Of a DNA stretch of 64,000 bases, positions 2,982 through 50,457 are shown piece after piece. Every line of letters starts with the position of its first letter. The first letter of the stretch is position 1. The stretch comes from Candidatus Iainarchaeum sp. (GTDB taxonomy: Archaea > Iainarchaeota > Iainarchaeia > Iainarchaeales > JAAZKV01). The DNA lies in contig JAQVNZ010000001.1 of NCBI GenBank assembly GCA_028702895.1, positions 36,235 through 100,234 of the forward strand, written 5' to 3'. Below the pieces are notes generated by a model. That model did no database searches, was not told the origin of the DNA, and saw only the letters and a list, made by a program, of their open reading frames with translations. The translations under genes and the position numbers were made by a program.

Positions 2982-3944
2982 ATGGATTATAATAAAATAA
3001 TTGATTCCACATATAGTTGGTTTTCTTTTTCAAAAGCAATTTGGTTTTTATTATTTTTTTGGTTAGCTTTGCCTGTTTTATTTTTGGTTCCGATTGCGTT
3101 TGAACAAGGGTTATTTTATTATGGCTTTTCATGGGCTTTGCAGGGATTGTATGTTATAACTTATATTTCCATTTTACTAGGTTTATTTTTGTTAACTGGG
3201 TTTGTTTTAAATAATAATAATATTAAATCAAAAGAAATTTCGATAAGCGTTTTTTTAGACATTATTTTTCTTGTGTTTTGTGAATTTTTTTATACTTTCT
3301 TTTGGAATATTAATAAAAAATTTAGGTTTACTCAAATTTTATTATTGTTTGGATCTGGATTACTGGGGTATTATTCTTTGTTTGTTCAGTCTCAATTTAT
3401 TTTTATATCGTTTATTATTTTTGTTGTATGTTATACTTTTTTTGTGTTATACAATTTTTTAAGAGTTTCTTTTTCGCTTACGCTTTTTTTGCATAATGAT
3501 TTTTCTATTATAGAATCTATTTTTGAATCCTGGCATTTAACTCATAATAAAGCATTACAGATTTTTTTTGGTTACTTGTTTAATCTTGTAACAGTTTTTG
3601 TTATTTTTGTAGTTGTTAGTATTATTTTGGGTGCTATAGCTAATTTGCTTTTAGTTAATTATTTGACTATTGCGTTATCATATAAATTAGCAATGGTGTT
3701 AGCAGTTATTTTTGCATTTGCTCCTGCGCTTGTTAGTTATTATTTTGGTTTTATGGAAATGTATTTGCAATTAATAAATCAACATTTGTCTAATAAAAAA
3801 ATAAAAAATATGCTTGCTGATAAAGTGGTACAAACTAATAAAATTGTTGTAACAAAAAAAGTTAAAAAATCTAAACCAATTAAAAAAAGTGTTAAGAAAA
3901 TTATTAAGAAAAAGAGTTCAAATAAAAAGTCTATTAAAAAATAA
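2982..3944 (+). CDS. Hypothetical polytopic membrane protein with a lysine-rich C-terminal tail
   Basis: This is a long ORF with at least 6 hydrophobic segments. It ends in about 45 residues of K-rich low complexity (KKVKKSKPIKKSVKKIIKKKSSNKKSIKK). No family was recognised. Confidence 0.5.
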   Translation: MDYNKIIDSTYSWFSFSKAIWFLLFFWLALPVLFLVPIAFEQGLFYYGFSWALQGLYVITYISILLGLFLLTGFVLNNNNIKSKEISISVFLDIIFLVFCEFFYTFFWNINKKFRFTQILLLFGSGLLGYYSLFVQSQFIFISFIIFVVCYTFFVLYNFLRVSFSLTLFLHNDFSIIESIFESWHLTHNKALQIFFGYLFNLVTVFVIFVVVSIILGAIANLLLVNYLTIALSYKLAMVLAVIFAFAPALVSYYFGFMEMYLQLINQHLSNKKIKNMLADKVVQTNKIVVTKKVKKSKPIKKSVKKIIKKKSSNKKSIKK

Positions 3945-6610: not shown

Positions 6611-8056
6611 TTACATTGTTAATGTATTAACTTTTTCTGATTTAGCGCTGCTTTTTCTAGCGCCTATTATTGTGTTTATTTCTTTTTTTTCAGCAGTTTC
6701 TAATAGTCTTTTTGTTATTATTCCATCAAATAATATTGTGTGTATTTTTTTCTTACTTTTTTCTATTGATGGGATTATTTCTTTTACTTCTACATCTTTG
6801 ATTTTTTTGTTTTTATCGTCATATAATCTAGCTTTTAAACTACCTTTGAATTTTGTGTAATCATTTGTTATTGTTTTTGCTATTGTTGGTGCTTCGATTT
6901 TTTTTGTTTGTGGTTTGATATCAGTTTTTTGTATTTCAGTTTTTGTTTCTATTTTTGCTGGTTGTTCTGTTTTTGTTTGTGTACTTGGTTTTGGTCTATA
7001 ATTTCCTTGGAATGGATCAAATGGTTTTGCATTATTTGGTCTCCATGAATTATAACTACTTCTTTGATTATCAAATCTTTCGTTTCGATTAGATCCAAAT
7101 TGGTTATAACTTGGTTTTCCTTGGTAATTATTGTATTTGTTAGTTGGATAATTGTTGTTATATGGTTTGAAAGTAGTTGGTCTATTATTAAATTTGTTAA
7201 ATTGTGGCCTTTCAAAACTTGGATAATTATTTGATTTTCCTTTCAAATAATCTGCTATGCTATATTTTCGTTTTAGTGATTGTAGTATTTCTTTTTGCGT
7301 TAATTCTTCAACTTCTTTTCCATCTGGTGCGGTTGCAACAAATTCTACTTTTGTTAATGCTGCTAATTTTTTTGCATTTAACTCTCCGCCTCGATCTCCA
7401 TCTACTAACATTGTTACTGTTTTGTGTTTGCATAATTCGATTAAGGATTGTTCAATATTGCTTCCGTTCATTGCGATAGCGTTTTTTATTCCGTAACTTA
7501 ATAGTTTAATTACATCTGCTCTTCCTTCTACAACAATTATTTCGTTGCTCGTTTGTACTTCTGGACCAGCTTGTAAACCATTTAAGTCAACTATTTTCGC
7601 TGTTCTTATTTGGCTTTTTATATTATCAGCTATTTCGGTTGTTTCGATTCCTTCAAATTTTTGCATTTTTTTAAGTAATTGTTTTGCTCTATCTGTAATA
7701 ACATCTCTTTTTTCTTTTCTTGTATCTGAAATGTTTAATATTTTTACAATAGTATTACAAGGGCCTACTTTTTCAACAGTTTCTATTGTTGCTGCAAGTA
7801 TGCTTGTTTTTACTTGATCTAATGAACTAGGAATAATTATTTCTCCACTAGTTTTTCCTTTATTTTTATTTACTGTTATTTCTATTCGTCCTAATTTTCC
7901 AGCTTGTTGTAATTCTTTTAAATCCATGTCTTCGCCTAACAAACCTTCGCTTTGTCCGAATATTGCGCCAATTATGTCTGGTTTTTCTACTATTCCGTCT
8001 ACTTCATATGTGGCTTTTATTTCATACTTTATAGTACTTAAATAAGTTTTTGCCAT
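6611..8056 (-). CDS. dnaG: Archaeal DnaG-type primase / exosome-associated TOPRIM protein, with a low-complexity insertion
   Basis: The N-terminus (YEVDGIVEKPDIIGAIFGQSEGLLGEDMDLKELQQAGKLGRIEI) is the hallmark archaeal DnaG N-domain. The TOPRIM region follows (IIVVEGRADV...LVDGDRGGE). Residues about 275-360 are N/Y/P/Q/F-rich low complexity. Confidence 0.85.
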   Translation of the reverse strand: MAKTYLSTIKYEIKATYEVDGIVEKPDIIGAIFGQSEGLLGEDMDLKELQQAGKLGRIEITVNKNKGKTSGEIIIPSSLDQVKTSILAATIETVEKVGPCNTIVKILNISDTRKEKRDVITDRAKQLLKKMQKFEGIETTEIADNIKSQIRTAKIVDLNGLQAGPEVQTSNEIIVVEGRADVIKLLSYGIKNAIAMNGSNIEQSLIELCKHKTVTMLVDGDRGGELNAKKLAALTKVEFVATAPDGKEVEELTQKEILQSLKRKYSIADYLKGKSNNYPSFERPQFNKFNNRPTTFKPYNNNYPTNKYNNYQGKPSYNQFGSNRNERFDNQRSSYNSWRPNNAKPFDPFQGNYRPKPSTQTKTEQPAKIETKTEIQKTDIKPQTKKIEAPTIAKTITNDYTKFKGSLKARLYDDKNKKIKDVEVKEIIPSIEKSKKKIHTILFDGIITKRLLETAEKKEINTIIGARKSSAKSEKVNTLTM

Positions 8057-12920: not shown

Positions 12921-13988
12921 ATGTATTTTGATGATTTTCTTTCAAATGTTTGTGATTCTATTGTTTTGAACAAAAGTTCTAATCAAATAGTTTTTTCAAA
13001 ATTAATCCCATTAAAAAATAAGTTATCTTTAAATAAAATAGAAAATTTTGTGGTTAAGGTTAATGAAAAAAAATTTTCGTGTAAAATCGCTGGAGTTGAT
13101 TCTGGTTTTGTTTCAAAAAAATTGCATTTTGTAGATTTAGTTTTATTAAAACTAGGAGGCGTTATTTTTTCATATAATAATAGTATTTTAGAAAAAGCAG
13201 ATTATTTTCCATCTCCTGCTTTATTGCCTCAACCAATTTTGTTAAAAAATTTTTTGGAAAAAGATGAAGAAATTCAAAGTATTTCGCTTATTAGATTAAG
13301 AAAAGAAATTCAATTATCTATTGATATTATAAAAAAATTTTTTCCAAAATATTTATTTATTGATGGATCTATTGTTCCTCAATATCAAGATAAACCAAGA
13401 GCTGGGTCTATTTTAAGCGATGATTATAAATCTATAATTGATTTGTTTGAAGAATTATACTTTGTGGCCCAGGAAAATGATTGTACGCTGATTTCTACAA
13501 TAGAAGATTCTAGGGGTAAGCGATTTATTCAATTAATCGAAGAATCAAATAATTCCGATTTTTTTAAAAATAATTCTTTGAAAAATTGTTTTGATTCTTT
13601 GTTATTAGATTTTTTATTAAATAAGGGAGAGCGAACATTTTGTTTTAATTATGCTTCTGATTTTGAATCTCATCCCGTTTTAAAAGATTATAAAATTGAC
13701 TGGGCTAAAAATATTTTTGTTTTTTATTTAAAAGCCAGCGAGTTTGATTTACCATTAAGAATAGAGTTCATTTCTAAAAATAATTGTGTAGAAAAAGCGA
13801 ATGAGATTGCATCAATTGTTTATTCTCTTTCGTCCTTGTATAAAGATTATTCTTATCCTTCAATTCTAATTGAAGCTGATTTAAGGGCCCGTTTAAAAGA
13901 TGATGATATTTCAATTATTTATGATAAGTTAATTGATAAACTTGGTCCAAAAATGATGTTGCGTAGAAATAATCGGCCATTTAAATGA
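12921..13988 (+). CDS. nurA: NurA 5'-3' nuclease
   Basis: NurA-like acidic motifs occur in the expected order: IAGVDSGF, LFIDGSIVPQ, IEDSRGKRF and YPSILIEADLRARL. The gene is clustered with HerA. Confidence 0.75.
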   Translation: MYFDDFLSNVCDSIVLNKSSNQIVFSKLIPLKNKLSLNKIENFVVKVNEKKFSCKIAGVDSGFVSKKLHFVDLVLLKLGGVIFSYNNSILEKADYFPSPALLPQPILLKNFLEKDEEIQSISLIRLRKEIQLSIDIIKKFFPKYLFIDGSIVPQYQDKPRAGSILSDDYKSIIDLFEELYFVAQENDCTLISTIEDSRGKRFIQLIEESNNSDFFKNNSLKNCFDSLLLDFLLNKGERTFCFNYASDFESHPVLKDYKIDWAKNIFVFYLKASEFDLPLRIEFISKNNCVEKANEIASIVYSLSSLYKDYSYPSILIEADLRARLKDDDISIIYDKLIDKLGPKMMLRRNNRPFK

Positions 13989-14671
13989 GTGTTATTATGA
14001 TTAAATTAGTTATTTTTGATTTATGGCGAACATTAATTCCTGCCACAATTGATTTTAATCATTTATTTTCTCTTATTACAAAAAAGGGTTTTTCCAAAGA
14101 AAAATTTATTGAGGATTATGAGAATGCTGTTCAATTAAAAGAATATAATTCTTTAGAAGAATTAAAAAAAGATTTTTTCCTAACTTTTAGACATGTAGAA
14201 GGAGTAGATTTAGGAAAAGAATTTTATGAAATTTACACTAATCGTTTTGATAAAATAAATTTTTTTCCAGATGTGAAAAAGAATTTGTTAAACGTTAAAA
14301 ATGCGGGATTTAAAATGGCTTTATTAAGTAACACTGAAAGTTTGTTATCAAAAAAAATTGAAGATAAATTAAAATTAAATGATTATTTTGATTTTTTAGG
14401 GTATAGTTTTGAAATAAATTTTTTAAAACCTGATAAAAGGGCTTTTGATTTTGTATTAAATAAATTTAATGTTAAACCTAGTGAAGCTGTTATGGTTGGA
14501 GATTCTTTAAGGTCAGATATTGCGGGAGCAAAAAATGCTGGAATGTTTACTATTCAAATTGATAGAGAAAATTTTGTTTTGGATGAAGCTAATGTTAAAC
14601 CAGATTTTAAAATAAGTTCTTTTGATGAGTTAATTGAAAAGTTGGGGTATTTGAATGAAAAAAAATCTTAA
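13985..14671 (+). CDS. HAD-superfamily hydrolase (subfamily IA-like)
   Basis: It has motif I (VIFDLWRTLI), motif II (LLSNTES) and motifs III/IV (K...VGDSLRSDIAGAKNAGM). Its start forms an ATGA overlap with the nurA stop. Confidence 0.75.
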   Translation: MSVIMIKLVIFDLWRTLIPATIDFNHLFSLITKKGFSKEKFIEDYENAVQLKEYNSLEELKKDFFLTFRHVEGVDLGKEFYEIYTNRFDKINFFPDVKKNLLNVKNAGFKMALLSNTESLLSKKIEDKLKLNDYFDFLGYSFEINFLKPDKRAFDFVLNKFNVKPSEAVMVGDSLRSDIAGAKNAGMFTIQIDRENFVLDEANVKPDFKISSFDELIEKLGYLNEKKS

Positions 14672-14873
14672 TAAAATCAGTGCTAAAAATAGGTTGGTTT
14701 CAAAAGAATCAATAGAAGCTTTGAACTTAGTAAAAAAATCAAAAATAAATTTGCGTAAAAGAATTGAACTTGAAAAATTACTTGCTAAAACTGCACATAT
14801 TGGAGAATATTTAAAACGAAAAAAACTTAGTGTGGGGAATCAAAATAATAAGTCTAAGGGGGTTAGAAAATGA
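14655..14873 (+). CDS. Small basic hypothetical protein (72 aa) between HAD and HerA
   Basis: It overlaps both neighbours (17 nt with HAD, an ATGA with herA), which suggests translational coupling. It is predicted helical and K/R-rich. No family was recognised. Confidence 0.4.
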   Translation: MKKNLNKISAKNRLVSKESIEALNLVKKSKINLRKRIELEKLLAKTAHIGEYLKRKKLSVGNQNNKSKGVRK

Positions 14874-16384
14874 ATTTACAATTAGGTACAGTTGTTTCAA
14901 CTATTGATGGGCCGTCTCCAAGTAAATTTGATTTTGTTGTTAATAATGGGTCTGTTCACAAGGGGATGTTTGTGGAGTTAAATTATAGTGAAGGCACGAT
15001 GATTTGTTTAGTTGAAGAATTAATTAAAACAAATAGGTATTTTGAAAGACCTGATTCAGTTAAAACTATTGGTGCTGAATTAGAAAAAAATTTTCCTACT
15101 GCTGATTGGGAATTTTTAATAGCTAAAGCAAAACCGTTAGGAGTTTTTTATGAATCTTTAATTAAAAGAGCTACGTTGCCTCCGTCCCCAGGAACAAAAG
15201 TTTTTATTGCAAGTAATGAGAATATAAAAAAATTTTTAAAATTAGAAGATAATGGTTTAAATTTAGGATCAATTCAATTTCATGATATTCCATTAAAATT
15301 AAATTTATCAAAATTATTACAAAAACATTTATCTGTTTTGGCAATGTCTGGAGCTGGAAAATCTTTTTTAATGTCAGTTATTTTAGAAGAATTACAAAAA
15401 CGCTCTGACGATCAAGGTAAAATCGCAACAATTGTTTTTGACACTCATGGTGAATACACTTCTTTTGGAGAACCGGTTACAAATTCAAATTTTGTGGATT
15501 TTTCTGCTAATACTAGGGTTGTTGACGGATCAAAAATAAAAATATCTGTTTCAAACATTTCTCCTCAAACATTATCGTCTCTACTTTCAACAATTACTCC
15601 AGTTCAAAAAAGAGAATTATTTAAAATTATTTCAAAGTTAAGAAGTGAAATGAAATCAGGCTTGGGACCGTTTGATTTAATTACTTTAAAAAACGAGTTT
15701 AGTTCTTTGGATTCTAAAACTGCGATACCCTTAAATTTTTTGGTTGATGAATTAATTTCATTAAATGTTTTTGGAAAAATTGATGATCCTTCAATATTTG
15801 ATTTGGTTAAGCCTGGTCAGTTAGTAATTATTGATTTAAATAATATTATTTCTGAGAGAAAGAAACAATTAATAGTTTCGTATTTATCTCAAAAACTTTT
15901 TAATCTTAGACGCGTAAAAAAAGTTTGTCCTTTTGCACTTCTTGTTGAAGAAGCGCATAATTTTATTCCTGAAAACACTTCTGCAGAATTTGCTCTTGCT
16001 AAACCAATTTTAAGAACAATTGCTAGAGAAGGTAGAAAATTTGGCGCGTCTTTAATTATTGTTTCACAAAGACCTAAACGTCTTGATACTACTACTCTTG
16101 CTAATTGTAATACTAATATTATTCTTAGAATTACTAATCCGTATGATTTAGATCATATTAAACAATCAAGTGAAGGATTAGATTCTGGTACAATTTCCAT
16201 GATTTCTGCGTTAAGAGTTGGTGAAGCGATTATTGTTGGTGAAGCAATTTCAGCTCCGACTTTTTTTAAAGTAAGAATGCGTGAATCAATGCCAAGTAAG
16301 CATGAAATGTCCATGGAAGACGCAGCTAAAAGATTTGTTGCTGATGATAAAACAAGTGTTGATGAAATATCAAATTTTTTATAA
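14870..16384 (+). CDS. herA: HerA-type hexameric DNA helicase/translocase (FtsK-HerA superfamily)
   Basis: An N-terminal HAS-barrel-like segment (GTVVSTIDGPSPSKFDFVV) is followed by Walker A (LAMSGAGKSF), Walker B (ALLVEEAHNFIP) and REGRKFGASLIIVSQRP. Confidence 0.85.
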   Translation: MNLQLGTVVSTIDGPSPSKFDFVVNNGSVHKGMFVELNYSEGTMICLVEELIKTNRYFERPDSVKTIGAELEKNFPTADWEFLIAKAKPLGVFYESLIKRATLPPSPGTKVFIASNENIKKFLKLEDNGLNLGSIQFHDIPLKLNLSKLLQKHLSVLAMSGAGKSFLMSVILEELQKRSDDQGKIATIVFDTHGEYTSFGEPVTNSNFVDFSANTRVVDGSKIKISVSNISPQTLSSLLSTITPVQKRELFKIISKLRSEMKSGLGPFDLITLKNEFSSLDSKTAIPLNFLVDELISLNVFGKIDDPSIFDLVKPGQLVIIDLNNIISERKKQLIVSYLSQKLFNLRRVKKVCPFALLVEEAHNFIPENTSAEFALAKPILRTIAREGRKFGASLIIVSQRPKRLDTTTLANCNTNIILRITNPYDLDHIKQSSEGLDSGTISMISALRVGEAIIVGEAISAPTFFKVRMRESMPSKHEMSMEDAAKRFVADDKTSVDEISNFL

Positions 16385-16501: not shown

Positions 16502-17983
16502 ATGCCAACACACAACTTGTTTAGCGTTCGCTATATTGAACAAAAAAAGGAAGTGATTTGTTATTTTAAAAATAATTATTCTCAAATAGCAAAACGTTTT
16601 TCGTTTATACCTTATTTTTTTATTGATGATTCATTTGATTTTGAAAAATTAAATGAAATACTTTTTTCTTTTAATATAAAAAATTTTTATTTAGATCATG
16701 TTAATAATAAAAAATGTGTTTTTTCTAGTTCGTATTTAGTTTTAAAAAAAATAAGTAATATTATTGCATTAATTTCTGATAAAAAATTTATTGTTTTATC
16801 TCCAGAACGAGTTTTTTTAATAAATAAAGATTGGTCTTATTTTGATGATTTTGAGATTAATGAAAATAATATTCAAAAAATTGGTTTTAATATTAACTTG
16901 AATTTTTTTGATTATTATATTTCAAACATTTCTTTTTTGGAAGCTTTAAAATTAAATGAGAATAAAACTAATTTAATTATTAATAATTATGTTATTTCAA
17001 ATTTTTTAAAAATTCCTATTAAACAAATACCTGTTGAATCACAAGGCCAATTAGAAGTTTTTTTAGAAAATATTTATTTTTCTAATGCATATCCTATAAA
17101 TTGGAAAATCAATAAAAAATTTTTCAAATCAACTAATTTTGCACCATATGGTGCATTTGAAAATATTTCTAAAATTGATTTTTCTTCGGTTTGGCTTAAT
17201 TCTCTTACAAATACTTTTTTTAATTTGGGACCGGATACACTTAATTGTTCTTGTTGTAAACCTATAAAATTAGATGATCTTAATTTATTGCCTTCTTCTT
17301 TAATTGAAATTATTCCTTTGGAAGATAATTTATTTTTTATTTCAACTTCAAATAATTTTTCAAATAATTTTAATTCTTCTAATCCTAATAAAATGTTTAG
17401 ATTATCTAAAAAGAAAGAATTTTTTTTAAAAAATTTTCCAGTGGGTCCACTATGTTCAAAAAAAGCGTATTTAATTCCAATTGATGATGCTAAAAAATTA
17501 TTGGATTCTAAAAAAGTTATTCTGGGAAAAAATCATCTCACTAATTGGTTTTGTAAAAAAAACGAGTCCTTTGTTTCTAAAGAAATTAAGAAATTAAATT
17601 CTTTAATAATTTTATTGGAAAAAGATTTATTAAAATATAATATTAATTTATTTTTTGAAAAAGATTTTAATTATTATTTTAAATCAAATTTATTATTATT
17701 TTTAAGAAAAATTTCATTAGAACTTCCATCTCATTTAACAAATCCAATTTCAAATTTTTTTGAATATCCTCTTGCAAAATCAGTTTATTCAATTCAAGAG
17801 AGTATTTTATGTAAATTTGTTGAATTTTCAGAAAAATCTGGTCATAGGGTAGTTTATTCTAATAATGAATCTGTTTTTGTTAAAGGTCATTCTTCTCTTT
17901 TGTTGGCTAATAATTTTGCTGTTTGTATGAATTTACCAAAACCAAAAATTTCAGAATTTTCTACAAAAACTTGTTTTAGGTAA
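16502..17983 (+). CDS. Putative miniaturised, inactivated family-B DNA polymerase homologue
   Basis: PolB-like segments occur in the expected order:
- FSVRYIEQKKEVICYF...FIPYFFID (N-terminal domain).
- SPERVFLINKDW (cf. RYLIDkgl).
- SQGQLEVFLENIYFSNAYPINWK (cf. StGnLVEWfLLrkAyernelaPNK).
- KIDFSSVWLN...NLGPDTLNC (cf. motif A, LDFrSLYPSII..NvSPDTLn).
- GHRVVYSNNESVFV (cf. motif C, vlYaDTDg, with the aspartates lost).
These are eye alignments to remembered consensus only. Confidence 0.55.
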   Translation: MPTHNLFSVRYIEQKKEVICYFKNNYSQIAKRFSFIPYFFIDDSFDFEKLNEILFSFNIKNFYLDHVNNKKCVFSSSYLVLKKISNIIALISDKKFIVLSPERVFLINKDWSYFDDFEINENNIQKIGFNINLNFFDYYISNISFLEALKLNENKTNLIINNYVISNFLKIPIKQIPVESQGQLEVFLENIYFSNAYPINWKINKKFFKSTNFAPYGAFENISKIDFSSVWLNSLTNTFFNLGPDTLNCSCCKPIKLDDLNLLPSSLIEIIPLEDNLFFISTSNNFSNNFNSSNPNKMFRLSKKKEFFLKNFPVGPLCSKKAYLIPIDDAKKLLDSKKVILGKNHLTNWFCKKNESFVSKEIKKLNSLIILLEKDLLKYNINLFFEKDFNYYFKSNLLLFLRKISLELPSHLTNPISNFFEYPLAKSVYSIQESILCKFVEFSEKSGHRVVYSNNESVFVKGHSSLLLANNFAVCMNLPKPKISEFSTKTCFR

Positions 17984-18066: not shown

Positions 18067-18273
18067 ATGGTAAAATTAACTAGGTTTGAATTAACAAGAG
18101 TTTTGAGTGCAAGGTCATTACAATTGTCTTTGGGTGCTCCTCCATTAGTTAAAGGTACTAAAAGTATGTCTATGCTTGAAGCTGCTGAAAAAGAACTTGA
18201 AAGTAAGGTTCTTCCTTTGAGTGTTTTAAGAAAATATCCAAACGGGATAATAAAAAGAGTTGAATTATATTAG
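18067..18273 (+). CDS. rpoK: DNA-directed RNA polymerase subunit K (Rpo6/RpoK)
   Basis: LTRFELTRVLSARSLQLSLGAPPLV is the Rpb6/RpoK signature. A GGTGAG SD-like motif lies upstream. Confidence 0.85.
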   Translation: MVKLTRFELTRVLSARSLQLSLGAPPLVKGTKSMSMLEAAEKELESKVLPLSVLRKYPNGIIKRVELY

Positions 18274-18281
18274 GTGTTTTT

Positions 18282-18470
18282 ATGGGTAAATCAGTTTCTA
18301 AAGGTCTAAAATATCGTGGCGAAGTTTTGTTAAAAGAAATGCCAGAACATTTTGGAAAGGATTTTGAAAAAAATAAAGCTGAATTAAATAAAATTGATTT
18401 AGGTTTATCTAAAACGAGTAGAAATGTTCTTTCTGGATATATTGTTAGATTATCATCAAAAAAAGAATAG
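18282..18470 (+). CDS. rps17e: 30S ribosomal protein S17e (eS17)
   Basis: MGKSVSKGLKYRGEVLLKEMPEHFGKDFEKNKAELNKI....SKTSRNVLSGYIVRL aligns by eye to archaeal eS17 (MG..R...iKr.a..l.....~.F..DFe.NK........~SK..RN.iAGYit). An AGGTG motif lies upstream. Confidence 0.8.
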   Translation: MGKSVSKGLKYRGEVLLKEMPEHFGKDFEKNKAELNKIDLGLSKTSRNVLSGYIVRLSSKKE

Positions 18471-18614: not shown

Positions 18615-20663
18615 TTAAATTATTGGCATAAGTTCTATTTTTGTTGCTTCGTCTAAATCTTTATTTCTCTCTAATAAATAAAGGTTACTAGTTGCTGCGT
18701 TTTCTAATTCTTTTTCGTGTGTTATTACAAAGATTTGTTCTACTAATTCGGGTAAAGAATTTTTTAACATTTGAGTTAATTGTTTTATTGTATTTTTATC
18801 AAGATTGTGGGTGGGTTCATCTAAAATAAATATTGATAATTGTTTGGTTAGAACCAATGCAAATGCAATTCTAATGCATATTGCTGCAACGCTTCTTTCG
18901 CCTCCACTTAATATTCCATCTACTCTGGTCCAAGTATTAGTTCTTGTTAGTACTTGCAAGTCATATCCATTTTCAACAATTGTTAATTTTGCATCAATAA
19001 AATCGCGGTAAGGGTATAGCACATCCCATGTTTGAGTTAAGGCATCATTTATTGTTTCAAGTAAATTTTCGCGTAATTCGTTTTGCGTTGCTATTAAACA
19101 ATTTTCAAAAACACCTAGTTTTTTTATTGCAATTTCGGATTTTTGTAAATCCTTTTCTATATTTTGGATTGAAGTTTTTATTTTTTTTATTCGTTGTATA
19201 TTTTCTAATAAATTTTTTATTAAATTATCATTGTTTTTTATTTTATCATCAATATTATTGAATATTGATTTTTTTTCAAAATAGTTTTTTCTTAAATCAT
19301 CCATTTTCATTTTATCAAATTTTAATTCAATAAGTTCTTTTTCTTTTAATGGTAAACTTTTTTCTAATTCTGCAATTTCTGTTAAATTTATTGTAATTTC
19401 TTCTGCTTCTTTTGTTAATCTTTCCAAAATAAAAATTCTTTCTTTTAATATGTCAATTTGTTTTTTATTATTATCAATATCATTTTTAAATAACTTTAAT
19501 TTTTCTAAATTTTCATTTTGATTAATTTCAATTAAATTAACTGTTTTTTTAATTTCAAGTATTTTCGCTTGTCCTTTTTTAATAATTTCATTTTTTTGTT
19601 CTTCGCTTAATTCTCTTAGGCATTTTGGGCATTTTTTGCTTATTTGTTTAATTTCGTTTTCTTCATTTTCTAATTCTCTTATAACATATCTGTGCACTTT
19701 TAGTTCTTCATTATTTTTTTTCTCTTTTTCTTCAAAAATATTTTTTGATTGCTCTATTTTTAAATTATCATTTTTTAGTTTTTCTAATAATTCTTTTTTT
19801 AGTTTGGTTTCAGTTAAAATATCTTCTTTGTTAATAATTTCTTTTTTTTTCAAACTCTCAACAAGAATTTCTTTTTTTGATTTTTTTCTATTTATTTCAT
19901 CTTTTAAAAAGTTAAATTGTTGTTCATTCTTTTCCATTTTTTCAAGTAAATCTTTTTTTTCTATTATTTCTTTTCCCAAAATTATTTTTTCATTTTTTAA
20001 TAATGTATTTTTTTCTTCTTCAATTTTAATTTGTTCGTTTAATTTTTCTTCTTCATAATCTTTTATAATGCTTGTTTGTTGTTTTATAGATTCATTTTTT
20101 TCTTTATTATCTCTTGTTAATTGGTTTTTCAAAGTAATAGAATTTTTTCTTGCAGTCTCGTATTTTTCTAATTCTAATAATTCATCAAATTTTTTCTTTC
20201 TTTCACTAGGGCTTAATTTTAGAAAAAAATCCATTTCGTTTTGTTCTGAATATGCTGCTCGACTAAATAATTCATAATTTAATCCTAATATTTTTTCAAT
20301 TTTTTCATTAACATCTTTTTGTTTTGGCCCGGCAATTAGTACATCGTTTTCATATAATTTTGATTCGTTTGTACCATTTTTTTTAATAATTCTTTGTACA
20401 ATATATGTTTTTGAATTATTTTCAAATATTATTTTTGTTTGTGCTTCATCGCATTCGTTTGGTTTATTCATTATTATTTCGTTTAATGATATTTGTTTAC
20501 TTTTTAATAGAGGAAAATTTCCAAATAGCGCGTAACTTAGGGCATTTACAATTGAACTTTTTCCAGAACCCATTACTCCAACAATAACGTTGGTGCCTTT
20601 TCCGAATTCTAATGTAGAGTCTTTGTGAGTTCGCCAATTTTTTAATTCAAGACTTTTAATCAT
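18615..20663 (-). CDS. rad50: Rad50-type SMC-like ATPase with a zinc hook
   Basis: It has N-terminal Walker A (IVGVMGSGKSSIVNAL), a long K/E coiled coil and a central CPKC zinc-hook motif. The C-terminal part has the signature LSGGERSVAAI and Walker B (IFILDEPTHNLD). Confidence 0.85.
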   Translation of the reverse strand: MIKSLELKNWRTHKDSTLEFGKGTNVIVGVMGSGKSSIVNALSYALFGNFPLLKSKQISLNEIIMNKPNECDEAQTKIIFENNSKTYIVQRIIKKNGTNESKLYENDVLIAGPKQKDVNEKIEKILGLNYELFSRAAYSEQNEMDFFLKLSPSERKKKFDELLELEKYETARKNSITLKNQLTRDNKEKNESIKQQTSIIKDYEEEKLNEQIKIEEEKNTLLKNEKIILGKEIIEKKDLLEKMEKNEQQFNFLKDEINRKKSKKEILVESLKKKEIINKEDILTETKLKKELLEKLKNDNLKIEQSKNIFEEKEKKNNEELKVHRYVIRELENEENEIKQISKKCPKCLRELSEEQKNEIIKKGQAKILEIKKTVNLIEINQNENLEKLKLFKNDIDNNKKQIDILKERIFILERLTKEAEEITINLTEIAELEKSLPLKEKELIELKFDKMKMDDLRKNYFEKKSIFNNIDDKIKNNDNLIKNLLENIQRIKKIKTSIQNIEKDLQKSEIAIKKLGVFENCLIATQNELRENLLETINDALTQTWDVLYPYRDFIDAKLTIVENGYDLQVLTRTNTWTRVDGILSGGERSVAAICIRIAFALVLTKQLSIFILDEPTHNLDKNTIKQLTQMLKNSLPELVEQIFVITHEKELENAATSNLYLLERNKDLDEATKIELMPII

Positions 20664-25210: not shown

Positions 25211-26014
25211 ATGATTATTTTTTTGATTATAATGTTTAAAAAGGTGTTATTATTAATTTTTATTCTGTTATTCGTTGGAACTGTGTTTAGTATTCGGTTA
25301 GTTGAACCAATTTCAAAAGAATTAAATGATAACGATTTTGTTGGTTCTATTGAACCTGGGCAAACTCTTGAATTAATTATTTCTAAAGAACTTGGTCGTT
25401 TTAATTCGGTTGAATTAACTTCTGATTTACCATCTTTTTTTAATATTTCAATAAAAGATTATTTAGAATCTGTTAAAATAATAATTGAATCAAATGAGCG
25501 AACACCAAGAACTAATTATTTTTTTTCTTTTAATTTAAAGGGTAAATCGTCTGTTAAAAATGTGCGAGTTTTTTTTTCAGTTACTGATTCTCTATTAGAT
25601 GCTACTTTACTAAATTATTCTTCAAGCACTAATGTTAATGATCCTGCGAATTATGATTTGCTTTTAATTAATAATTCTGATGCGGATGCAAAATTTTTGT
25701 TAAATGTTAATTTACCCTGGTTTTGGTTGTCTAATAATTTAGATACTGAAAATGCGGGTTTTGTTATTGTTCCAAAACAACAAAAAATAATTCAAAAATT
25801 AGTTGTTTTTCCAAGAGTTCAAGGAAATCATTATTTTAAAGTTCATTTAGATTTGCAAACTAAAAATAATTCTAAAGAATTTACGCTTTATTCTAATGCT
25901 AAACCAACGCTTGCGTCTAAGTTTAATTCTTCTTTAAGTGGTTTGCCTTTTTATTCAATTTCTGTGCTTCCAAGCTATTTTTTAAATAGTGTTTTTTCAG
26001 TTCTATTTAACTAA
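25211..26014 (+). CDS. Hypothetical secreted/membrane-anchored beta-rich protein
   Basis: It has an N-terminal TM (VLLLIFILLFVGTVFS), an S/N/T-rich body and a hydrophobic C-terminus. No family was recognised. Confidence 0.45.
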   Translation: MIIFLIIMFKKVLLLIFILLFVGTVFSIRLVEPISKELNDNDFVGSIEPGQTLELIISKELGRFNSVELTSDLPSFFNISIKDYLESVKIIIESNERTPRTNYFFSFNLKGKSSVKNVRVFFSVTDSLLDATLLNYSSSTNVNDPANYDLLLINNSDADAKFLLNVNLPWFWLSNNLDTENAGFVIVPKQQKIIQKLVVFPRVQGNHYFKVHLDLQTKNNSKEFTLYSNAKPTLASKFNSSLSGLPFYSISVLPSYFLNSVFSVLFN

Positions 26015-34868: not shown

Positions 34869-36785
34869 TCAAGGCTTACATTTTGTAAAGTTAGGTTGTT
34901 TTAAAGGTTGATTTTCAAGCGGGGAATATGAAAAAGCCCATGAACATTTAATTACTTTTGATACATTCCATTTGTTAATATCTTGATTAAACTGCGAGTC
35001 AGAAAACATTTGTTCCATGTTTGTTACGTTGATTGTATTCCAATCATTAATTGGGTGATTAAATTTCGAATGCCAAAACATAAATTTCATTGTTGTTACA
35101 TTGCGTGTGTTCCAGTTTTCGATTGGTTGGTTGAAGTCTGAATATGAAAACATGTTTTCCATTGTTGTTACGTTGCTTGTGTTCCAATTGCTAATGTCTT
35201 GATTGAATTTAGAATGGTCAAACATTGAAGCCATATTTGTTACGTTGCTTGTGTTCCAATCGCTAATATGTCCGTTGAATTGTGATTCATGAAACATTGC
35301 GTACATATTTGTTACTTTGCTTGTGTCCCAATTGTTTATATTTTGATTAAATTTTGAACCGTAAAACATTCCAAACATGTTTGTTACGTTGCGTGTATCC
35401 CAGTTATTTAGAGGGTAATTGTATGGTGAATATATGAACATATATTGCATATTTGTTACGTTGATTGTATTCCAATCATTAATTGGGTGATTAAATTTTG
35501 CTGCCCAAAACATGTTCTGCATATTTGTTACGCTGCTTGTATTCCAGTTATTTATTGGCTGGTTGAAATCTGAATATACAAACATTGCGAACATGTTTGT
35601 TACTTTGCTTGTGTTCCAATTACTAATATCTTGATTGAATTTAGAACTATTAAACATTTCACTCATCGTGGTTACGTTGCTTGTGTTCCAATTGCTAATA
35701 TCTTGATTAAATGTAGCGCCACCAAACATTGAAGCCATATTTGTTACGTTGCTTGTGTTCCAATTGCTTATGTTTCCGTTGAATTGAGAATTACTAAACA
35801 TCCCATTCATATTTGTTACATTGCCCGTATTCCAATTATTAATATTTTGATTAAATCGTGAATTAGCAAACATTTTTTCCATATTGGTAATATTCTTTGA
35901 GGCATCATCAAAAAAATCTGGACAAGAAACTTGTGTTAGAGTAGTGTTTGCAAACATGCTTCGTGCTGACGTTAATCCCGTAACCGAATTACTAACTGGT
36001 GTGTGAATATCTTTTAACATTTCCCCACTATTTTCAAAGGAGATTCTACTTGCTTTTCCTTTTAAAGAAATATTATAATCTCCTGGAGTGGGATAGGTTT
36101 TTATTTGTGTATCTCCAGGGGGTAAATTCACCCAACCCTGTCCTAATCCCCAGTCAACTTCCATTCCTTGAGCGCCATAAATAATAAATTGAAATTGTTC
36201 ATTATTTTTTGTAGTTTTTATTTGGAATGTAAATGGGGGTGTTGGTTTATCGGGGTCTATTAGGGGTTTTCCACATTTTCCTAGATAATTCGTATCTGTT
36301 CCTGCTTTTATAGCATAGCAACGATTATCATAAGTATTTCCGTCCAAACCACAAACCGGGATAGTGCCCGCGTTTAAACAATCGTCTTCTTCTGGTATTT
36401 CTGGATCGTCTGGCTCTGGTTCGCCAGTATAATTATTATTTAATATTATTTGCGAATTTTTAAAATTAGTAAATTTTCCTATTTTTTCTACTATTTTTTT
36501 TAAGTCAAAATAGTTATTATCTATTGTTGGGGGAATAGTTTGAACAAAAAATTTTGGTATTTCATTTTCTTCAACAAAAATATTTTGGATTATAACATTC
36601 TCGTTTTTTTGGTTTGATTGAACTAATAATTCACTTCGTATTAGCGTATATGCGTTTGTAACATTATATGTATTTAAAAAAAAGGATGATAAAATTATTG
36701 TAAATGTTATAATAACTAAAAGTATTATTAAACTTTCAAACGAAACTTGCCCTTTATTAAATATTTTTTTTTTCAATATAATCAA
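34869..36785 (-). CDS. Pilin-anchored surface protein: class III signal + Kazal-like domain + 13 DUF285/BspA-like repeats (putative adhesin)
   Basis: The N-terminus is KKIFNKGQVSFESLIILLVIITF. An acidic P/E linker follows, then a Kazal-like segment (CLNAGTIPVCGLDGNTYDNRCYAIKAGTDTNYLGKCG, nt 36273-36380). After that come 13 tandem 24-aa units with consensus MF..S.FNQ.I..WNTSNVTNM... The start is TTG, forming a TTGA overlap with the upstream gene. Confidence 0.75.
   Translation of the reverse strand: MIILKKKIFNKGQVSFESLIILLVIITFTIILSSFFLNTYNVTNAYTLIRSELLVQSNQKNENVIIQNIFVEENEIPKFFVQTIPPTIDNNYFDLKKIVEKIGKFTNFKNSQIILNNNYTGEPEPDDPEIPEEDDCLNAGTIPVCGLDGNTYDNRCYAIKAGTDTNYLGKCGKPLIDPDKPTPPFTFQIKTTKNNEQFQFIIYGAQGMEVDWGLGQGWVNLPPGDTQIKTYPTPGDYNISLKGKASRISFENSGEMLKDIHTPVSNSVTGLTSARSMFANTTLTQVSCPDFFDDASKNITNMEKMFANSRFNQNINNWNTGNVTNMNGMFSNSQFNGNISNWNTSNVTNMASMFGGATFNQDISNWNTSNVTTMSEMFNSSKFNQDISNWNTSKVTNMFAMFVYSDFNQPINNWNTSSVTNMQNMFWAAKFNHPINDWNTINVTNMQYMFIYSPYNYPLNNWDTRNVTNMFGMFYGSKFNQNINNWDTSKVTNMYAMFHESQFNGHISDWNTSNVTNMASMFDHSKFNQDISNWNTSNVTTMENMFSYSDFNQPIENWNTRNVTTMKFMFWHSKFNHPINDWNTINVTNMEQMFSDSQFNQDINKWNVSKVIKCSWAFSYSPLENQPLKQPNFTKCKP
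34938..35873 (-). repeat. Intragenic 72-nt (24-aa) tandem repeat array, 13 units, with a higher-order block duplication
   Basis: The units start at about aa 305 and run to aa 616 of the adhesin. Long near-identical DNA stretches recur at an offset of 432 nt (6 units), for example 35021-35080 versus 35453-35512. At protein level, units 2, 3, 5, 6 pair with units 9, 10, 11, 12. Confidence 0.85.
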
Positions 36786-47928: not shown

Positions 47929-48060
47929 ATGAGAAAAACTTGTCCTGTTTGTAATAGTTCAAAATACCAACTTGTTGGTAAGGATTATGTTTGCGCTAAA
48001 TGTCATTTTGTTTCAAAACCTTTTTTTAAACCAAATTTTGTTGTGGGTGAAAAAAAATGA
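47929..48060 (+). CDS. Small Zn-ribbon protein (43 aa) coupled to nreA
   Basis: The hand-translated sequence is MRKTCPVCNSSKYQLVGKDYVCAKCHFVSKPFFKPNFVVGEKK, with CPxC...CxxC. Its stop overlaps the nreA start (ATGA). It is absent from the ORF track. Confidence 0.45.
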   Translation: MRKTCPVCNSSKYQLVGKDYVCAKCHFVSKPFFKPNFVVGEKK

Positions 48061-49289
48061 TTTCTCCAGAATTGTGTATTAAGTGTAAAGGCAAACTTCT
48101 TTGTGGACTAAAAAAATGTCCTATTCTTGAAAAAAATGCGTCTTCTAGTAAAATTGTTTCTAAATTAAAAAATAATTCTTTTAGTGGTGCAACACCTCCT
48201 GGGTTTTTTGTTTCATGGAATAATTATCCTAATGTTTCAGTGGCTCCGTTATCTGCTCTACCAGAAGAAATTTCGCCTATTTCTGATAAACCTGAAGAAT
48301 GGTTTGGTTTATCACAAGAAAAAATAATTTCTTTTCGAGAATCTCTTTTAAGATCTCATAAAACAATGCCTGTTTCTCTTGCAAGTAATCCTAATTATGA
48401 ATTATTAGATTTTCAAGAAATTGCAATGACTGATATTATTGTTGATGTGGAGGTTTCTTTAAAAAAATCGCCTAAGCTTGAAACAACGTTTGATTCTTTT
48501 TCTGCACCTTTAGGCCCTTCTGCTGAATTAGAAAAAATTTCTTTTACAAATAATGTTAGGGTTCCTCAAAAAGTAGATTATTTTGTTTCAGATACTGATG
48601 CAAAATCTAATACTGCCTTAATAGAATTATTCAAAGATGGTTTTCCAGTTTCGTTTCTTGCAAAAGTATTATCTTCTGGTGCGCTTGGTGTAAAAAAAGA
48701 TAGAAAACTTGTTCCTACTCGTTGGAGTATTACTGCAGTAGATTCTAATATTTCAAAACATTTTATTGAAAATAATTTGTCTCAAAACAAAATAATTGAT
48801 TCCTTTAAATTATTTCATTCTAATTATCTGGATAATGATTTTTGGATTTTATTATTACCTTTTGCGTGGTCTTTTGAACAAATTGAAGTTTGGTTGCCTG
48901 GTGGGATTTGGAATGTTAATTCAAAAGAATTTCAAATTTTATCAGATTATGAATTAAATTCTGGGCTAAAAGGGTATCCTAAAGAAACTGAAGGAGCATA
49001 TTTTGCATCCCGATTAGCAATAACAGAATTTTTGGTGGATAGAAAAGAAAACGCTTCTGCAATAGTTTTTAGAGAAATTGGTTCAAATTATGCTATTCCT
49101 TTAGGGGTTTGGCAAATAAGAGAAAATGTTCGTCATGCTCTTAAAGAAGAACCGCTCATTTTTTCAACAATGGATAATGTTTTAGAATTTTTATCAAAAA
49201 AATTATCAGTTCCAATATCTCAATATAAAACTAAATCAGTATTAATAAAACATTTTAAATCTCAAACAAGATTAAGTCAATGGTTTTAA
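48057..49289 (+). CDS. nreA: NreA-like DNA repair protein (Nre_N/Nre_C, formerly DUF650/DUF651) with a C-terminal PIP box
   Basis: The N-terminal LCIKCKGKLLCGLKKCPIL matches my recollection of the Nre_N Cys motif. The size of about 410 aa fits. The extreme C-terminus QTRLSQWF fits the PCNA-interaction consensus Q-x-x-[LIM]-x-x-[FYW]-[FYW]. Confidence 0.65.
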   Translation: MISPELCIKCKGKLLCGLKKCPILEKNASSSKIVSKLKNNSFSGATPPGFFVSWNNYPNVSVAPLSALPEEISPISDKPEEWFGLSQEKIISFRESLLRSHKTMPVSLASNPNYELLDFQEIAMTDIIVDVEVSLKKSPKLETTFDSFSAPLGPSAELEKISFTNNVRVPQKVDYFVSDTDAKSNTALIELFKDGFPVSFLAKVLSSGALGVKKDRKLVPTRWSITAVDSNISKHFIENNLSQNKIIDSFKLFHSNYLDNDFWILLLPFAWSFEQIEVWLPGGIWNVNSKEFQILSDYELNSGLKGYPKETEGAYFASRLAITEFLVDRKENASAIVFREIGSNYAIPLGVWQIRENVRHALKEEPLIFSTMDNVLEFLSKKLSVPISQYKTKSVLIKHFKSQTRLSQWF

Positions 49290-49374: not shown

Positions 49375-50340
49375 TTATTTTTTGTATTTTAAATATTGTG
49401 CGATTAATGCTTCTAATTGTATTCTTTCGTTCGCACCTTCTACTAATCTAAAATCATATTCTCCAATAGTATCAACTAATTCTATTTTTGTTTGATTAGA
49501 TATGTGTTCTTCGCTAAGATTCATTGTTTCGCGATATAATTGTTTTATTATATCTTCTCCACTCATTCCATATTCATACATTAATTGGTCTAATTTTTTT
49601 CTAGCTTCTAAAAAATTTCCATCTAATGCTAATAAAATCATGTCTTGTATTTGCTCTGGTCTTGCACGTGAAGAAACACTATAAATAATTTCGGAATCTA
49701 TTTTTTCATCAATACTAGAACTAGCTTGTAAAATATTTATTGCTTTTCTTAAATCGCCTTGAGCAACATAATTTATTGCGTCTAAAGCATCATCAGTAAT
49801 ATCAATTTTTTCAATCAAAGCTATTTTTTTTATTTGATTTTTTATTTCTTCACCATTTAATGGTTTAAATCTATAAACTACACATCTGCTTTGTAATGGA
49901 TCAATTATTTTTGAAGAATAATTACAACTTAAAATAAAACGACAAGTTTTAGTATATTTTTCCATTGTTCGTCTTAATGCTTGTTGAGCATCATTTGTTA
50001 GTGCGTCACATTCATCTAAAAAAATAATTTTAAAATTTGAATCAAAAGCAAGAGTTCTTGCAAAATCTTTTATTGTATGTCTTACAATATCAATTCCTCT
50101 ATCATCACTTGCGTTTAATTCTAAAAAATTTTGGTCAAAATTTTCTTTGAACAATTCTTTTGCAAGAGCAATACTTGAAGAAGTTTTTCCAGTTCCTGCT
50201 GGGCCTGAAAGTAATAAGTTTGGAACATTTTTTTGATCAATATAACTTTGTAATCGTTTTGTTAAATTATCGTGCCCAATAACATCAGCTATTTTTTTAG
50301 GTCTATATTTCTCAACCCATGGCAAATTATCTTGTTCCAT
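49375..50340 (-). CDS. rfcS: Replication factor C small subunit
   Basis: It contains PWVEKYRPKKIADVIGHD, Walker A SGPAGTGKTS, DECDALT, the SRC motif (QSRC) and a C-terminal collar domain. Confidence 0.9.
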   Translation of the reverse strand: MEQDNLPWVEKYRPKKIADVIGHDNLTKRLQSYIDQKNVPNLLLSGPAGTGKTSSSIALAKELFKENFDQNFLELNASDDRGIDIVRHTIKDFARTLAFDSNFKIIFLDECDALTNDAQQALRRTMEKYTKTCRFILSCNYSSKIIDPLQSRCVVYRFKPLNGEEIKNQIKKIALIEKIDITDDALDAINYVAQGDLRKAINILQASSSIDEKIDSEIIYSVSSRARPEQIQDMILLALDGNFLEARKKLDQLMYEYGMSGEDIIKQLYRETMNLSEEHISNQTKIELVDTIGEYDFRLVEGANERIQLEALIAQYLKYKK

Positions 50341-50457
50341 ATTATTTTTTGGTTTGGTAATAATTAAATATGGATTGTTTTTAATTTTATTTTTTGTATT
50401 CGCAACAATTAAAAGCTTAATATTATTAATTTACATTAGAATATTTTTATTGATTAT

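Follow-up and report, generated by a model that had tools for sequence, protein, structure and literature searches.

What kind of protein is encoded between herA and rad50 in the archaea of the phylum Iainarchaeota? In the DNA analysed here, a stretch of 64,000 nucleotides from Candidatus Iainarchaeum sp. (GenBank assembly GCA_028702895.1, contig JAQVNZ010000001.1, positions 36,235 to 100,234; hereafter the window), this place is taken by a gene that we call X, an open reading frame (ORF) of 493 amino acids (aa) with an ATG start at positions 16502-17983 of the plus strand. The window is archaeal DNA of ~25% G+C, and the source databases label the whole X family 'hypothetical protein'. The first-pass annotation, made from the sequence alone, had proposed that X is a miniaturised, inactivated homologue of the family-B DNA polymerases (PolBs) and the terminal gene of a NurA-HAD-HerA cluster, with a role linked to end resection; the ORF itself proved to be real and as claimed. 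The answer developed here is that X derives from a PolB, has very probably given up catalysis, and carries in its palm an insertion that probably is a GINS-B-like domain, with four invariant cysteines at its base.

Searches with the sequence of X alone bring out little of this. The Pfam scan of X returned nothing at E≤10, and neither DNA_pol_B (PF00136) nor DNA_pol_B_exo1 (PF03104) matched the query or any of 94 family members at the same limit. The NCBIfam PolB models reached E=0.017 at residues 417-463 and E=0.1 at residues 213-253, and the score of 13.4 bits stays below the cut-off of 570. A phmmer search of the PDB gave E=0.65 for the PolB of P. calidifontis (5mdn). These single-sequence searches converge on two motifs in the correct order, namely motif A (213-253) and motif C (417-463), but values of 0.017-0.65, or no match at all, are insufficient on their own, and therefore a family profile and a structural model were needed.

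The profile used for this purpose, A1, is an alignment of 45 X-family sequences, and it served both for a search of the PDB sequences and for the AlphaFold2 model. The search found only PolBs, with 5mdn as the best match (E=4.7e-4) and E. coli Pol II as the next. Two colinear stretches were aligned to 5mdn: query 163-246 to residues 352-438, including motif A, and query 367-473 to residues 474-579, including the fingers and motif C. With hhalign, A1 was aligned over query 144-257 to residues 312-434 of P. furiosus (Pfu) Pol at E=0.0095, which covers the ExoIII helix, the 'LVEWFLLR' segment, motif A and the Cys after motif A; the Pfu Pol sequence was checked and is identical in extent to 3a2f_A (1-775, 1749 bits). 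The AlphaFold2 model has a mean predicted local distance difference test score (pLDDT) of 90.6 and a predicted template modelling score (pTM) of 0.88, and Foldseek found 238 PDB matches to it at E≤1e-3. The best 50 of these 238 are all archaeal PolBs (E 8e-11 to 3e-8, probability 1.0), with a template modelling (TM) score of ~0.53 on the query over ~690 alignment columns. In a library of predicted viral structures, every named match among the best 50 listed is a DNA polymerase. Because the family profile, the AlphaFold2 model with its Foldseek matches, and the viral library agree on PolBs, the homology is established, and we regard it as practically certain that X is a true family-B DNA polymerase homologue.

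The central proposal of the first-pass annotation, a miniaturised PolB homologue, is thus borne out by structure (Foldseek E~1e-10) and by the family profile. The segment beginning 'SQGQLEVFLEN...' and motif A, both of which had been picked out by reading, fall within the part aligned to Pfu 312-434. Of the checks that had been suggested with it, the one against PF00136 and PF03104 came back empty, whereas the structure search against PolBs was strongly positive.

X belongs to a sizeable family of its own. It comprises 64 clusters at 90% identity, all annotated as 'hypothetical' and without Pfam domains, and an exhaustive hidden Markov model (HMM) scan of 1.84 billion representatives returned 239 proteins at E≤1e-3, that is, at least 239 clusters at 50% identity. 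The lengths are consistent (480-570 aa), and among the 150 listed of the 239 matches of that scan there is no full-length PolB and nothing longer than ~546 aa. Scanning each GTDB species through a single genome gave 43 X loci, and every named one belongs to Candidatus Iainarchaeum, 'ainarchaeum' or Forterrea. The hosts are members of the phylum Iainarchaeota, formerly Diapherotrites, within DPANN, and the family was found in Iainarchaeia only. Conservation in relatives, which had been put forward as a test, was found in 43 species-level genomes and 133 full-length members. Identity across syntenic loci falls to 26-30%; X is under strong purifying conservation across a class-level lineage and is a housekeeping gene of the Iainarchaeia. 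The family is undescribed in PMC7544198, PMC12680538, PMC9023282 and the full-text literature searched. An origin in a defence island or a phage was considered and rejected, because X has no PADLOC match and its best match in PHROGs has E=0.77.

How much of a polymerase is left in X can be read along the protein, all coordinates being those of the plus strand of the window. The assignment of the whole gene (16502..17983) as a miniaturised inactivated PolB homologue draws on the ORF, the family clusters, the model, Foldseek and the profile. The first part of the PolB N-terminal domain, aa 1-115 (16502..16846), is recognised from invariant columns and from the global structural alignment. It carries the motifs 'Y..F..FxPY' and 'ERxFLxxK', the latter resembling RYLIDK, and P37 and F105 are invariant. 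By eye, we infer that these motifs correspond to Pfu 1-124. The two N-terminal segments that had been named at first reading therefore have the global structural match and the comparison by eye in their favour, but no tool aligned them at the level of residues. Among the residues of the uracil-sensing pocket of archaeal PolB N-domains, also compared by eye, the equivalents of Y7 and P36 are kept, and the equivalent of F116 is Glu.

A vestige of the exonuclease domain follows at aa 116-143 (16847..16930). Here ~28 aa stand in place of the ~190 aa of the 3'-5' exonuclease domain (Pfu ~131-311), in keeping with the earlier claim that a full exonuclease domain is missing; the hhalign alignment resumes at query 144, equivalent to Pfu 312 in the ExoIII helix, and the confidence of the model drops to pLDDT 68-76. 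The ExoI and ExoII motifs are absent from X. The family-conserved candidate for ExoI is YFDxF at residues 113-117, and FDYY, the earlier assignment, is at most a putative one. The second part of the N-terminal domain, aa 144-205 (16931..17116), is helical and is defined by hhalign against Pfu and by HMMER against 5mdn 352-438; its 'LEVFLEN' is the counterpart of Pfu 'LVEWFLLR'. The first part of the palm, aa 206-248 (17117..17245), with a degenerate motif A and the core K224-IDFSSVW, is defined by the alignments to 5mdn and Pfu.

Beyond motif A the archaeal PolB order is interrupted. The invariant columns C249-x-C251-C252 (17246..17257; residues 249-252 of the window protein read C-S-C-C) form the N-terminal base of a palm insertion, the GINS-B-domain-like part of which spans aa ~262-345 (17285..17536) and is defined by Foldseek, Pfam, hhalign and decoy ranking. 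Its C-terminal base is a further invariant column, C351 (17552..17554), in the context W-F-C-x3-E-S-F. The fingers, aa 357-412 (17570..17737), consist of two long helices (H357-381 and H389-412 by DSSP) and are aligned to 5mdn 474-540. The second part of the palm, aa 413-493 (17738..17980), contains a dead motif C; its place follows from alignments with 'GIEVIYGDTDSLFVK' of 5mdn and with E. coli Pol II. After motif C the chain runs on for ~30 aa and stops at the boundary between palm and thumb, with query 473 equivalent to residue 579 of 783 in 5mdn. The thumb domain is absent from X, as first proposed, and this absence is genuine rather than the result of a gene split in two, because the next gene is rpoK.

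The loss of domains is accompanied by loss of the catalytic residues, which were counted in a MAFFT alignment of the 133 full-length members. Motif A, aligned with DFSSMYP of 5mdn and DFRALYP of Pfu, reads DFSxVW in the family, so that the Tyr and Pro of SLYPS are lost; its Asp226 is Asp in 115/133 members and Asn in 11/133. The motif C hairpin of X is G447-HRVVYSNNESVFVKG, in which DTD is replaced by N454-N455-E456. The replacement of DTD by NNE had been noticed at first reading, and it holds in the alignment to YGDTDS of 5mdn, with the acidic residues lost throughout the family. The family motif C reads (L/I)(H/Y)x-N-K-K-x-A-F-(V/I)-(K/R)-G, and the DTD positions are occupied mainly by Asn, Ser, Gly, Lys or Arg. 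In 76/133 members the turn holds no acidic residue whatever, none is conserved there, and Glu456, which stands at the position of the second motif C Asp in the window protein, occurs in 5/133 only. Motif B (KxxxNSxYG) is absent: the region aligned to it reads 'LSELPxQLTNxxSKFF', in which K, N, Y and G are not conserved by column counts. Lys and Arg are frequent where metal was once bound, which suggests that positive charge has replaced the metal ions. Because the residues of motifs C and B, the exonuclease domain and the thumb are all lost, canonical two-metal polymerase chemistry is very unlikely, and we hold with considerable confidence that X is non-catalytic.

Conservation in the family is strongest away from the polymerase motifs. 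The invariant positions are eight (P37, F105, C249, C251, C252, G315, P316 and C351), and the nearly invariant ones include N241, H291, R300, D329, L333 and W349. The window protein is itself atypical at two places, with Asn291 where 128/133 members have His and Leu317 where 114/133 have Phe.

The palm insertion, which the first-pass annotation missed together with the invariant CxCC...C site, has the topology strand-strand-helical hairpin (284-306)-strand-strand-helix-strand and the core motif PxGPF...(I/V)PLxDAxxL at aa 313-342. The hairpin lies between strands 2 and 3, bears H291 and R300, and is specific to the family. The region was studied with a sub-profile, A3 (aa 200-368), and a sub-model of pLDDT 91.2. 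Foldseek matched the sub-model to the C-terminal domain of T. kodakarensis Gins51 in the structure with GAN (5ghr_B) at probability 0.98, with TM 0.69 on the 55-residue target and an rmsd (root-mean-square deviation) of 2.6 Å. Further GINS matches were 5ghr_D, 5ghs_D, the GINS of T. kodakarensis (3anw) and S. solfataricus (9moj), and PSF2 of human, worm, frog and fly. GINS chains make up ~20 of the best 50 of 133 Foldseek matches, and the other matches have probabilities of 0.01-0.13 and rmsd >10 Å.

Sequence comparisons of several kinds point the same way. When individual members were scanned with hmmscan, the commonest Pfam family was PSF2_N (6/94 full-length members and 7/43 sub-sequences, best E=0.0011) and the second was Gins51_C (best E=0.0013); these matches fall at aa ~301-340, corresponding to PSF2_N profile positions 20-60 of 60. 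With hhalign, the family pattern 'PvGPF...iPLxDAxxL...i' (aa 313-342) was aligned to 'dlGPF...vPLWLAinL...l' of human PSF2 (32-61; sequence checked and identical to 2e9x_B) at P=0.0011, and an insertion alignment of 133 sequences against a PSF2 B-domain alignment gave a probability of 66% and P=5.7e-5. The PSF2 B-domain profile is shallow, the search for it having returned only vertebrate PSF2 at ≥73% identity, and ten controls were added to compensate: reversed alignments gave P~0.035, and eight unrelated small-protein alignments from the same loci gave P=0.17-0.77. When the insertion HMM was used for ranking, 74 PSF2 sequences came before the first of 2049 decoy ORFs. By eye, the first pair of strands, 'SLIEIIPLEDNLFFI', can be set against 'ELVTIIPNFSLDKIYLI' of PSF2. 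Four concordant lines thus combine, each of them below its threshold, to make GINS-B-like the best description of the insertion, and we consider this assignment probable. From the same evidence (hhalign and the location of the Pfam matches), the segment 'FPVGPLCSKKAYLIP' (FPVGPLCSKK..), at first taken for the PolB loop 'aPvGh.Fck..GfiP', is reassigned to the core of the GINS-B-like domain. X shows no similarity to the GINS A-domain (Sld5, PF05916). The P-domain of Pol epsilon was considered as another identity for the insertion and rejected: A3 found no PolB or Pol epsilon among the PDB sequences, and there is no Pol epsilon among the best 50 of the 133 Foldseek matches of the sub-model.

The four cysteines C249, C251, C252 and C351 are invariant in 133/133 full-length members. 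They bracket the insertion, because the first three lie 23-26 residues past the motif A Asp and C351 lies just before the first fingers helix. We judge it likely, with somewhat more reserve than for the domain itself, that they form a putative structural metal site for Zn or Fe-S. If the motif A Asp of yeast Pol2 is D640, as we assume, the spacing past this residue is +23 to +26 in X versus +25, +28 and +37 for CysX of Pol2. The CysX cysteines of yeast Pol2 are those given in PMC6582351. A HMMER search with a wider profile aligned W-F-C351, weakly, with the Cys in 'TICQRENSFY' of human POLE (7pfo_B, E=0.79). From residue numbering, this Cys is presumably the fourth CysX ligand. As far as the sequences tell, the topology of the X site would be that of CysX, the cluster beneath the Pol epsilon P-domain; what we retain is the positional analogy of the Cys site only, not homology to the P-domain fold. 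The P-domain and CysX are reported to occur in orthologues of Pol epsilon 'but not in other PolBs' (Kazlauskas et al. 2020, PMC7544198), and the only metal-binding domains then known in archaeal PolBs were the C-terminal Zn-binding domains of groups B6 and B10 (PMC7544198).

What might such a protein do? We read X as a non-catalytic, PolB-derived adaptor or scaffold; taken whole, with its putative docking function and metal site, this explanation seems to us evenly poised between right and wrong. A role as an adaptor at the replisome or in fork repair is a tentative proposal, about which we are slightly more inclined to doubt than to belief. In such a protein the dead polymerase core would act as a DNA- or protein-binding platform, the GINS-B-like module would dock on GAN (RecJ/Cdc45-type) or on the N-domain of a polymerase small subunit (DP1, Dpb2), and a metal held by the four cysteines, Zn or Fe-S, would serve as a clasp that stiffens the base of the insertion. 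X would then correspond, in archaea, to the inactive PolB module of Pol epsilon and be placed at the replication or fork-repair machinery. The B-domain of Gins51 is known to bind GAN, the RecJ/Cdc45 homologue, through one face and the N-terminal domain of DP1, the small subunit of PolD, through the other, and in the same manner Psf1C binds Cdc45 and, from Pol epsilon, Dpb2N (PMC9023282). In Pol epsilon, the half with the inactive PolB serves as an essential scaffold that binds CMG (PMC7544198). The insertion and the Cys site are the most distinctive and most conserved parts of X, and the replisome is suggested by them no less than resection.

A bolder version is that X plugs directly into a CMG-type helicase by way of a GINS B-domain captured into its palm, with GAN/RecJ-Cdc45 or a DP1/Dpb2-type N-domain as the point of contact, is stabilised by a CysX-like cluster (Fe-S or Zn), and possibly couples the replisome to fork repair by HerA-NurA and Rad50. 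This we regard as doubtful; if true, X would be an independent prokaryotic case of an 'inactive PolB as replisome organiser', and among archaeal proteins with the PolB fold it would be the first to have a metal cluster in the palm.

Several observations weigh against the adaptor explanation. Near X there is no GINS, GAN, MCM or DP1 gene, and its conserved neighbours are genes of double-strand break repair (nurA, herA, rad50), not replisome genes. The GINS Pfam matches score 17-19 bits (best 19.3) against a gathering score of 27, Foldseek gives E=0.14 for the GINS match, every single similarity to GINS is sub-threshold, and the sequence alignment to GINS covers only ~30 residues. Finally, D226 is kept in 86% of members, so that residual chemistry is formally possible.

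These neighbours lead to the most serious competing explanation, that X is a non-catalytic DNA-end-binding subunit of the HerA-NurA (and Rad50) resection machinery that holds or presents the end. In the window, nurA (12921-13988, Pfam NurA), a HAD phosphatase gene (13985-14671, Pfam HAD_2), a small ORF of 72 aa (14655-14873, ORF call) and herA (14870-16384, 504 aa, Pfam DUF87/HerA) precede X on the plus strand. They are followed beyond X by rpoK (Rpb6; 18067-18273) and rps17e (18282-18470), both identified by Pfam and both on the plus strand, and by the convergent rad50 on the minus strand (18615-20663; Pfam AAA_23, SMC_N, Rad50_zn_hook). In the other loci, which were annotated with the window's own proteins, the order is essentially always PTH2-NifU-IscS-helix-turn-helix protein-hypothetical protein, then nurA-(HAD)-herA-X-rpoK-rps17e, then rad50 on the minus strand, EF1B, CCA enzyme and a type II secretion system (T2SS) ATPase. 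That X lies between herA and rad50 in 43/43 species-level genomes, even where its identity falls to 26-30%, speaks for the resection explanation, as does its position on the same strand as nurA-HAD-herA, with a herA-X gap of ≤200 bp in 20/44 loci. A PolB palm with an N-terminal domain could also plausibly bind an end that resembles a primer-template.

The same survey, however, deprives this adjacency of its specificity. The whole block of ~20 kb is syntenic in all 43 genomes, and NifU/IscS, PTH2, EF1B, the CCA enzyme and the T2SS-type ATPase are as syntenic as the repair genes; because everything within ~20 kb is equally so, herA-X adjacency singles out no functional link. The junction between herA and X is interrupted in 19/44 loci, where the gap exceeds 500 bp (median 389 bp over all loci), and unrelated genes, many of them on the opposite strand, fill the large gaps. 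In the window, oligo-T tracts lie 3' of herA and ~30 nt separate a TATA-like TTTATAA from the downstream start codon of X, though these signals are weak evidence because the stretch has 22% G+C. The linkage of X to rpoK is tighter than that to herA, and the X family as found is confined to one syntenic lineage, so that independent co-occurrence with herA or nurA is not available as support. Conserved adjacency to herA, as originally claimed, therefore holds to the extent that X always lies downstream of herA. The description of X as the terminal gene of the operon proves unreliable, and the link to end resection, for which gene order is the whole basis, is weaker than claimed in a block that is syntenic throughout. 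We consider the resection explanation unlikely; it would be compatible with the adaptor explanation if the role of X were in fork restart.

The herA-X junction is a recurrent insertion site (loci L015, L023, L033, L036, L037 and others). Its contents include an asparaginase gene and, judged by eye, RelE/ParE-like plus CopG-like toxin-antitoxin pairs, a lone CopG-like gene, amidinotransferase-like genes, membrane transporters, a Na/Ca-exchanger-like membrane protein, and a DNA-alkylation-repair-like protein.

Gene spacing gives rise to a second, less probable explanation, namely that X is a transcription or translation factor, associated with RNA polymerase or the ribosome and encoded by the first gene of an X-rpoK-rps17e unit. 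The genes most tightly linked to X are rpoK and rps17e: the gap between X and rpoK is ≤200 bp in 31/35 loci and >500 bp in 2/35, with a median of 94 bp, which makes this adjacency more stable than that with herA. Transcription of X probably starts at a promoter of its own and often takes in rpoK-rps17e as well. Co-location with these two genes is nevertheless weak evidence of function. Information-processing genes of different pathways are commonly interleaved in archaea. Both recognisable modules of X, the PolB and the GINS B-domain, stem from DNA replication, and we find a role in transcription or translation improbable.

A third possibility is that X substitutes for, or partners, a missing Mre11 as the subunit associated with Rad50. 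No mre11 was found by BLAST with Pfu Mre11 in the 64-kb window or in 47 loci, or by Pfam among the window ORFs; none lies in the herA-X gaps either, and X sits in the interval between herA and rad50, where thermophile operons carry mre11. X has neither the motifs nor the fold of a phosphoesterase, however, Mre11 may be encoded elsewhere in the genome, and X and rad50 are convergent rather than co-oriented, all of which makes this possibility very improbable.

Equally hard to credit is the explanation that X has kept enzymatic activity, as a polymerase or nucleotidyltransferase of an unconventional kind with non-canonical residues: Asp226 in 115/133 members, Glu456 in the window protein, and the precedent of PolB2/Dpo2 and the primer-independent PolBs, once thought inactive and now known to be active (B2 PolBs and piPolB work although one motif C Asp is missing; PMC7544198), can be cited for it, but the active precedents all keep at least one motif C Asp and the full architecture, whereas X has no conserved motif C acid (none in 76/133, E456 in 5/133), no motif B, no exonuclease domain and no thumb to hold a duplex.

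Comparison with known systems helps to place X. With the archaeal replicative PolBs (those of P. furiosus and T. gorgonarius, KOD Pol, 5MDN, and S. solfataricus PolB1, 1S5J) its best matches in structure and sequence, it has the domain order and the fold in common, and traces of the RYLIDK-like motif, of the 'LVEWFLL' helix, of motif A and of the hairpin of motif C can still be recognised in it. It is ~280 residues shorter, has no exonuclease domain, thumb, motif B or motif C aspartates, adds the ~85-aa palm insertion and the 4-Cys site, and stays below all Pfam and NCBIfam PolB thresholds. Inactivated archaeal PolB paralogues (the PolB2, or B2, group) have reportedly been described by Rogozin and co-workers in 2008 and by Makarova and co-workers in 2014. 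Like X, the B2 proteins are conserved paralogues with disrupted exonuclease and polymerase motifs, which implies a non-replicative or structural role. They keep an exonuclease-like domain and the thumb. The group has no conserved ExoI or ExoIII, one motif C Asp and a conserved D(K/R) motif, and Dpo2 is active (PMC7544198). X differs from the B2 group in that whole domains and all motif C acidity are lost, a foreign insertion is present, and the distribution is limited to Iainarchaeia.

X can also be compared with the C-terminal inactive PolB of Pol epsilon (DUF1744), a dead PolB scaffold that ties the polymerase to the CMG helicase. DUF1744 gave weak matches in two X-family members, and no significant sequence link was found. 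The Pol epsilon module is much larger than X and forms part of one chain with an active PolB and a Zn-finger C-terminal domain; it contacts GINS through Dpb2, whereas X has a GINS-like domain built in. In the active half of Pol epsilon, the P-domain with the CysX [4Fe-4S] cluster is inserted at the same palm site as in X, between motif A and the first fingers helix, and the arrangement of three cysteines plus one is matched. The spacing differs (CxCC in X versus Cx2Cx8C in Pol epsilon), the fold of the insert did not match the P-domain in the searches given above, and Pol epsilon is an active enzyme.

The GINS B-domain (C-terminal in Gins51, N-terminal in Psf2/Gins23; PF22090, PF25005) has four strands, a helix and a strand with the core 'GPF...VPLWLA..L', all matched by the insert of X. 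In X, however, it is an internal palm insertion rather than a terminal domain, it has an extra helical hairpin of ~25 aa, and it comes without an A-domain. Poxvirus F12 and the helicase-PolB fusions of Polintons and Polinton-like viruses (PMC4304020, PMC5499653) illustrate that PolB folds have repeatedly been inactivated and reused non-catalytically; these are viral or eukaryotic, with other architectures and contexts, and no specific similarity of X to them was found. Dead PolBs as such are known, and what appears to be new in X is the combination of a missing thumb and exonuclease domain with a captured GINS-type domain and a CysX-like site.

Some further observations concern the genes around X. 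In some Iainarchaeia genomes herA is enlarged to ~1115 aa by an intein, as at L007:52-3399 (+) and L045:5334-8714 (Intein_splicing and LAGLIDADG_3 inside DUF87/HerA by Pfam), and herA of the window has none. Upstream of the cluster, a NifU-like gene of ~500 aa with a LAGLIDADG domain, probably also an intein, occurs at L005:2781-4286 (-) and L027:2242-3738. The rad50 gene lies downstream of EF1B and convergent with rps17e, without an adjacent mre11 in the window and the 47 loci, and it is ~130 aa longer in L018, L024, L027, L033, L038 and L046. The HAD gene, which stands between nurA and herA with overlapping stop and start codons, is unusual company for two end-resection genes; most loci have it, and it is absent from several deeper-branching ones, e.g., L004/L040, L008, L029, L032, L035, L041 and L044-L047. 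The 72-aa ORF, which is rich in Lys, runs from within the 3' end of the HAD gene into the 5' end of herA. At the same place L001, L002 and L004 have an ORF of 56-68 aa, and BLAST found the 72-aa sequence in L005 only; the product may represent a conserved micro-protein belonging to the nurA-herA unit.

Elsewhere in the window, the 38 ORFs scanned include no GINS, PolB or PolD gene. Other genes of DNA metabolism are those for archaeal Nre (48057-49289), the small subunit of RFC (49375-50340, minus strand), topoisomerase IA (55618-57786), a DnaG-like Toprim protein (6611-8056, minus strand) and an ATP-cone protein (53320-54870, minus strand), none of which is a PolB, PolD, GINS, MCM or RecJ/GAN. 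A 638-aa protein encoded at 34869-36785 on the minus strand has seven DUF285 ('Mycoplasma') repeats (E=3e-180), which is noteworthy in a DPANN genome; it probably functions at the cell surface or in adhesion. No Pfam match at E≤1e-3 was obtained for five more uncharacterised ORFs of 200-320 aa on the plus strand (2982-3944, 25211-26014, 50354-51106, 52426-53232 and 58070-58675).

Ideas on the origin of the eukaryotic replisome give a central place to inactivated PolBs, among them the B2 group of archaea and the C-terminal half of Pol epsilon. The X family is a more extreme case of inactivation, in which two entire domains are gone, as is all catalytic acidity, and it also gains what is probably a domain otherwise known only from GINS, at the palm site where Pol epsilon has its P-domain and Fe-S cluster. 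At the least, a fold can now be assigned to a conserved family of 'hypothetical proteins' with at least 239 sequence clusters. If docking and metal binding hold, X would offer a tractable model, of ~57 kDa, of how a dead polymerase organises replication or repair complexes, and it would be a new component of the minimal DNA-maintenance toolkit of DPANN archaea.

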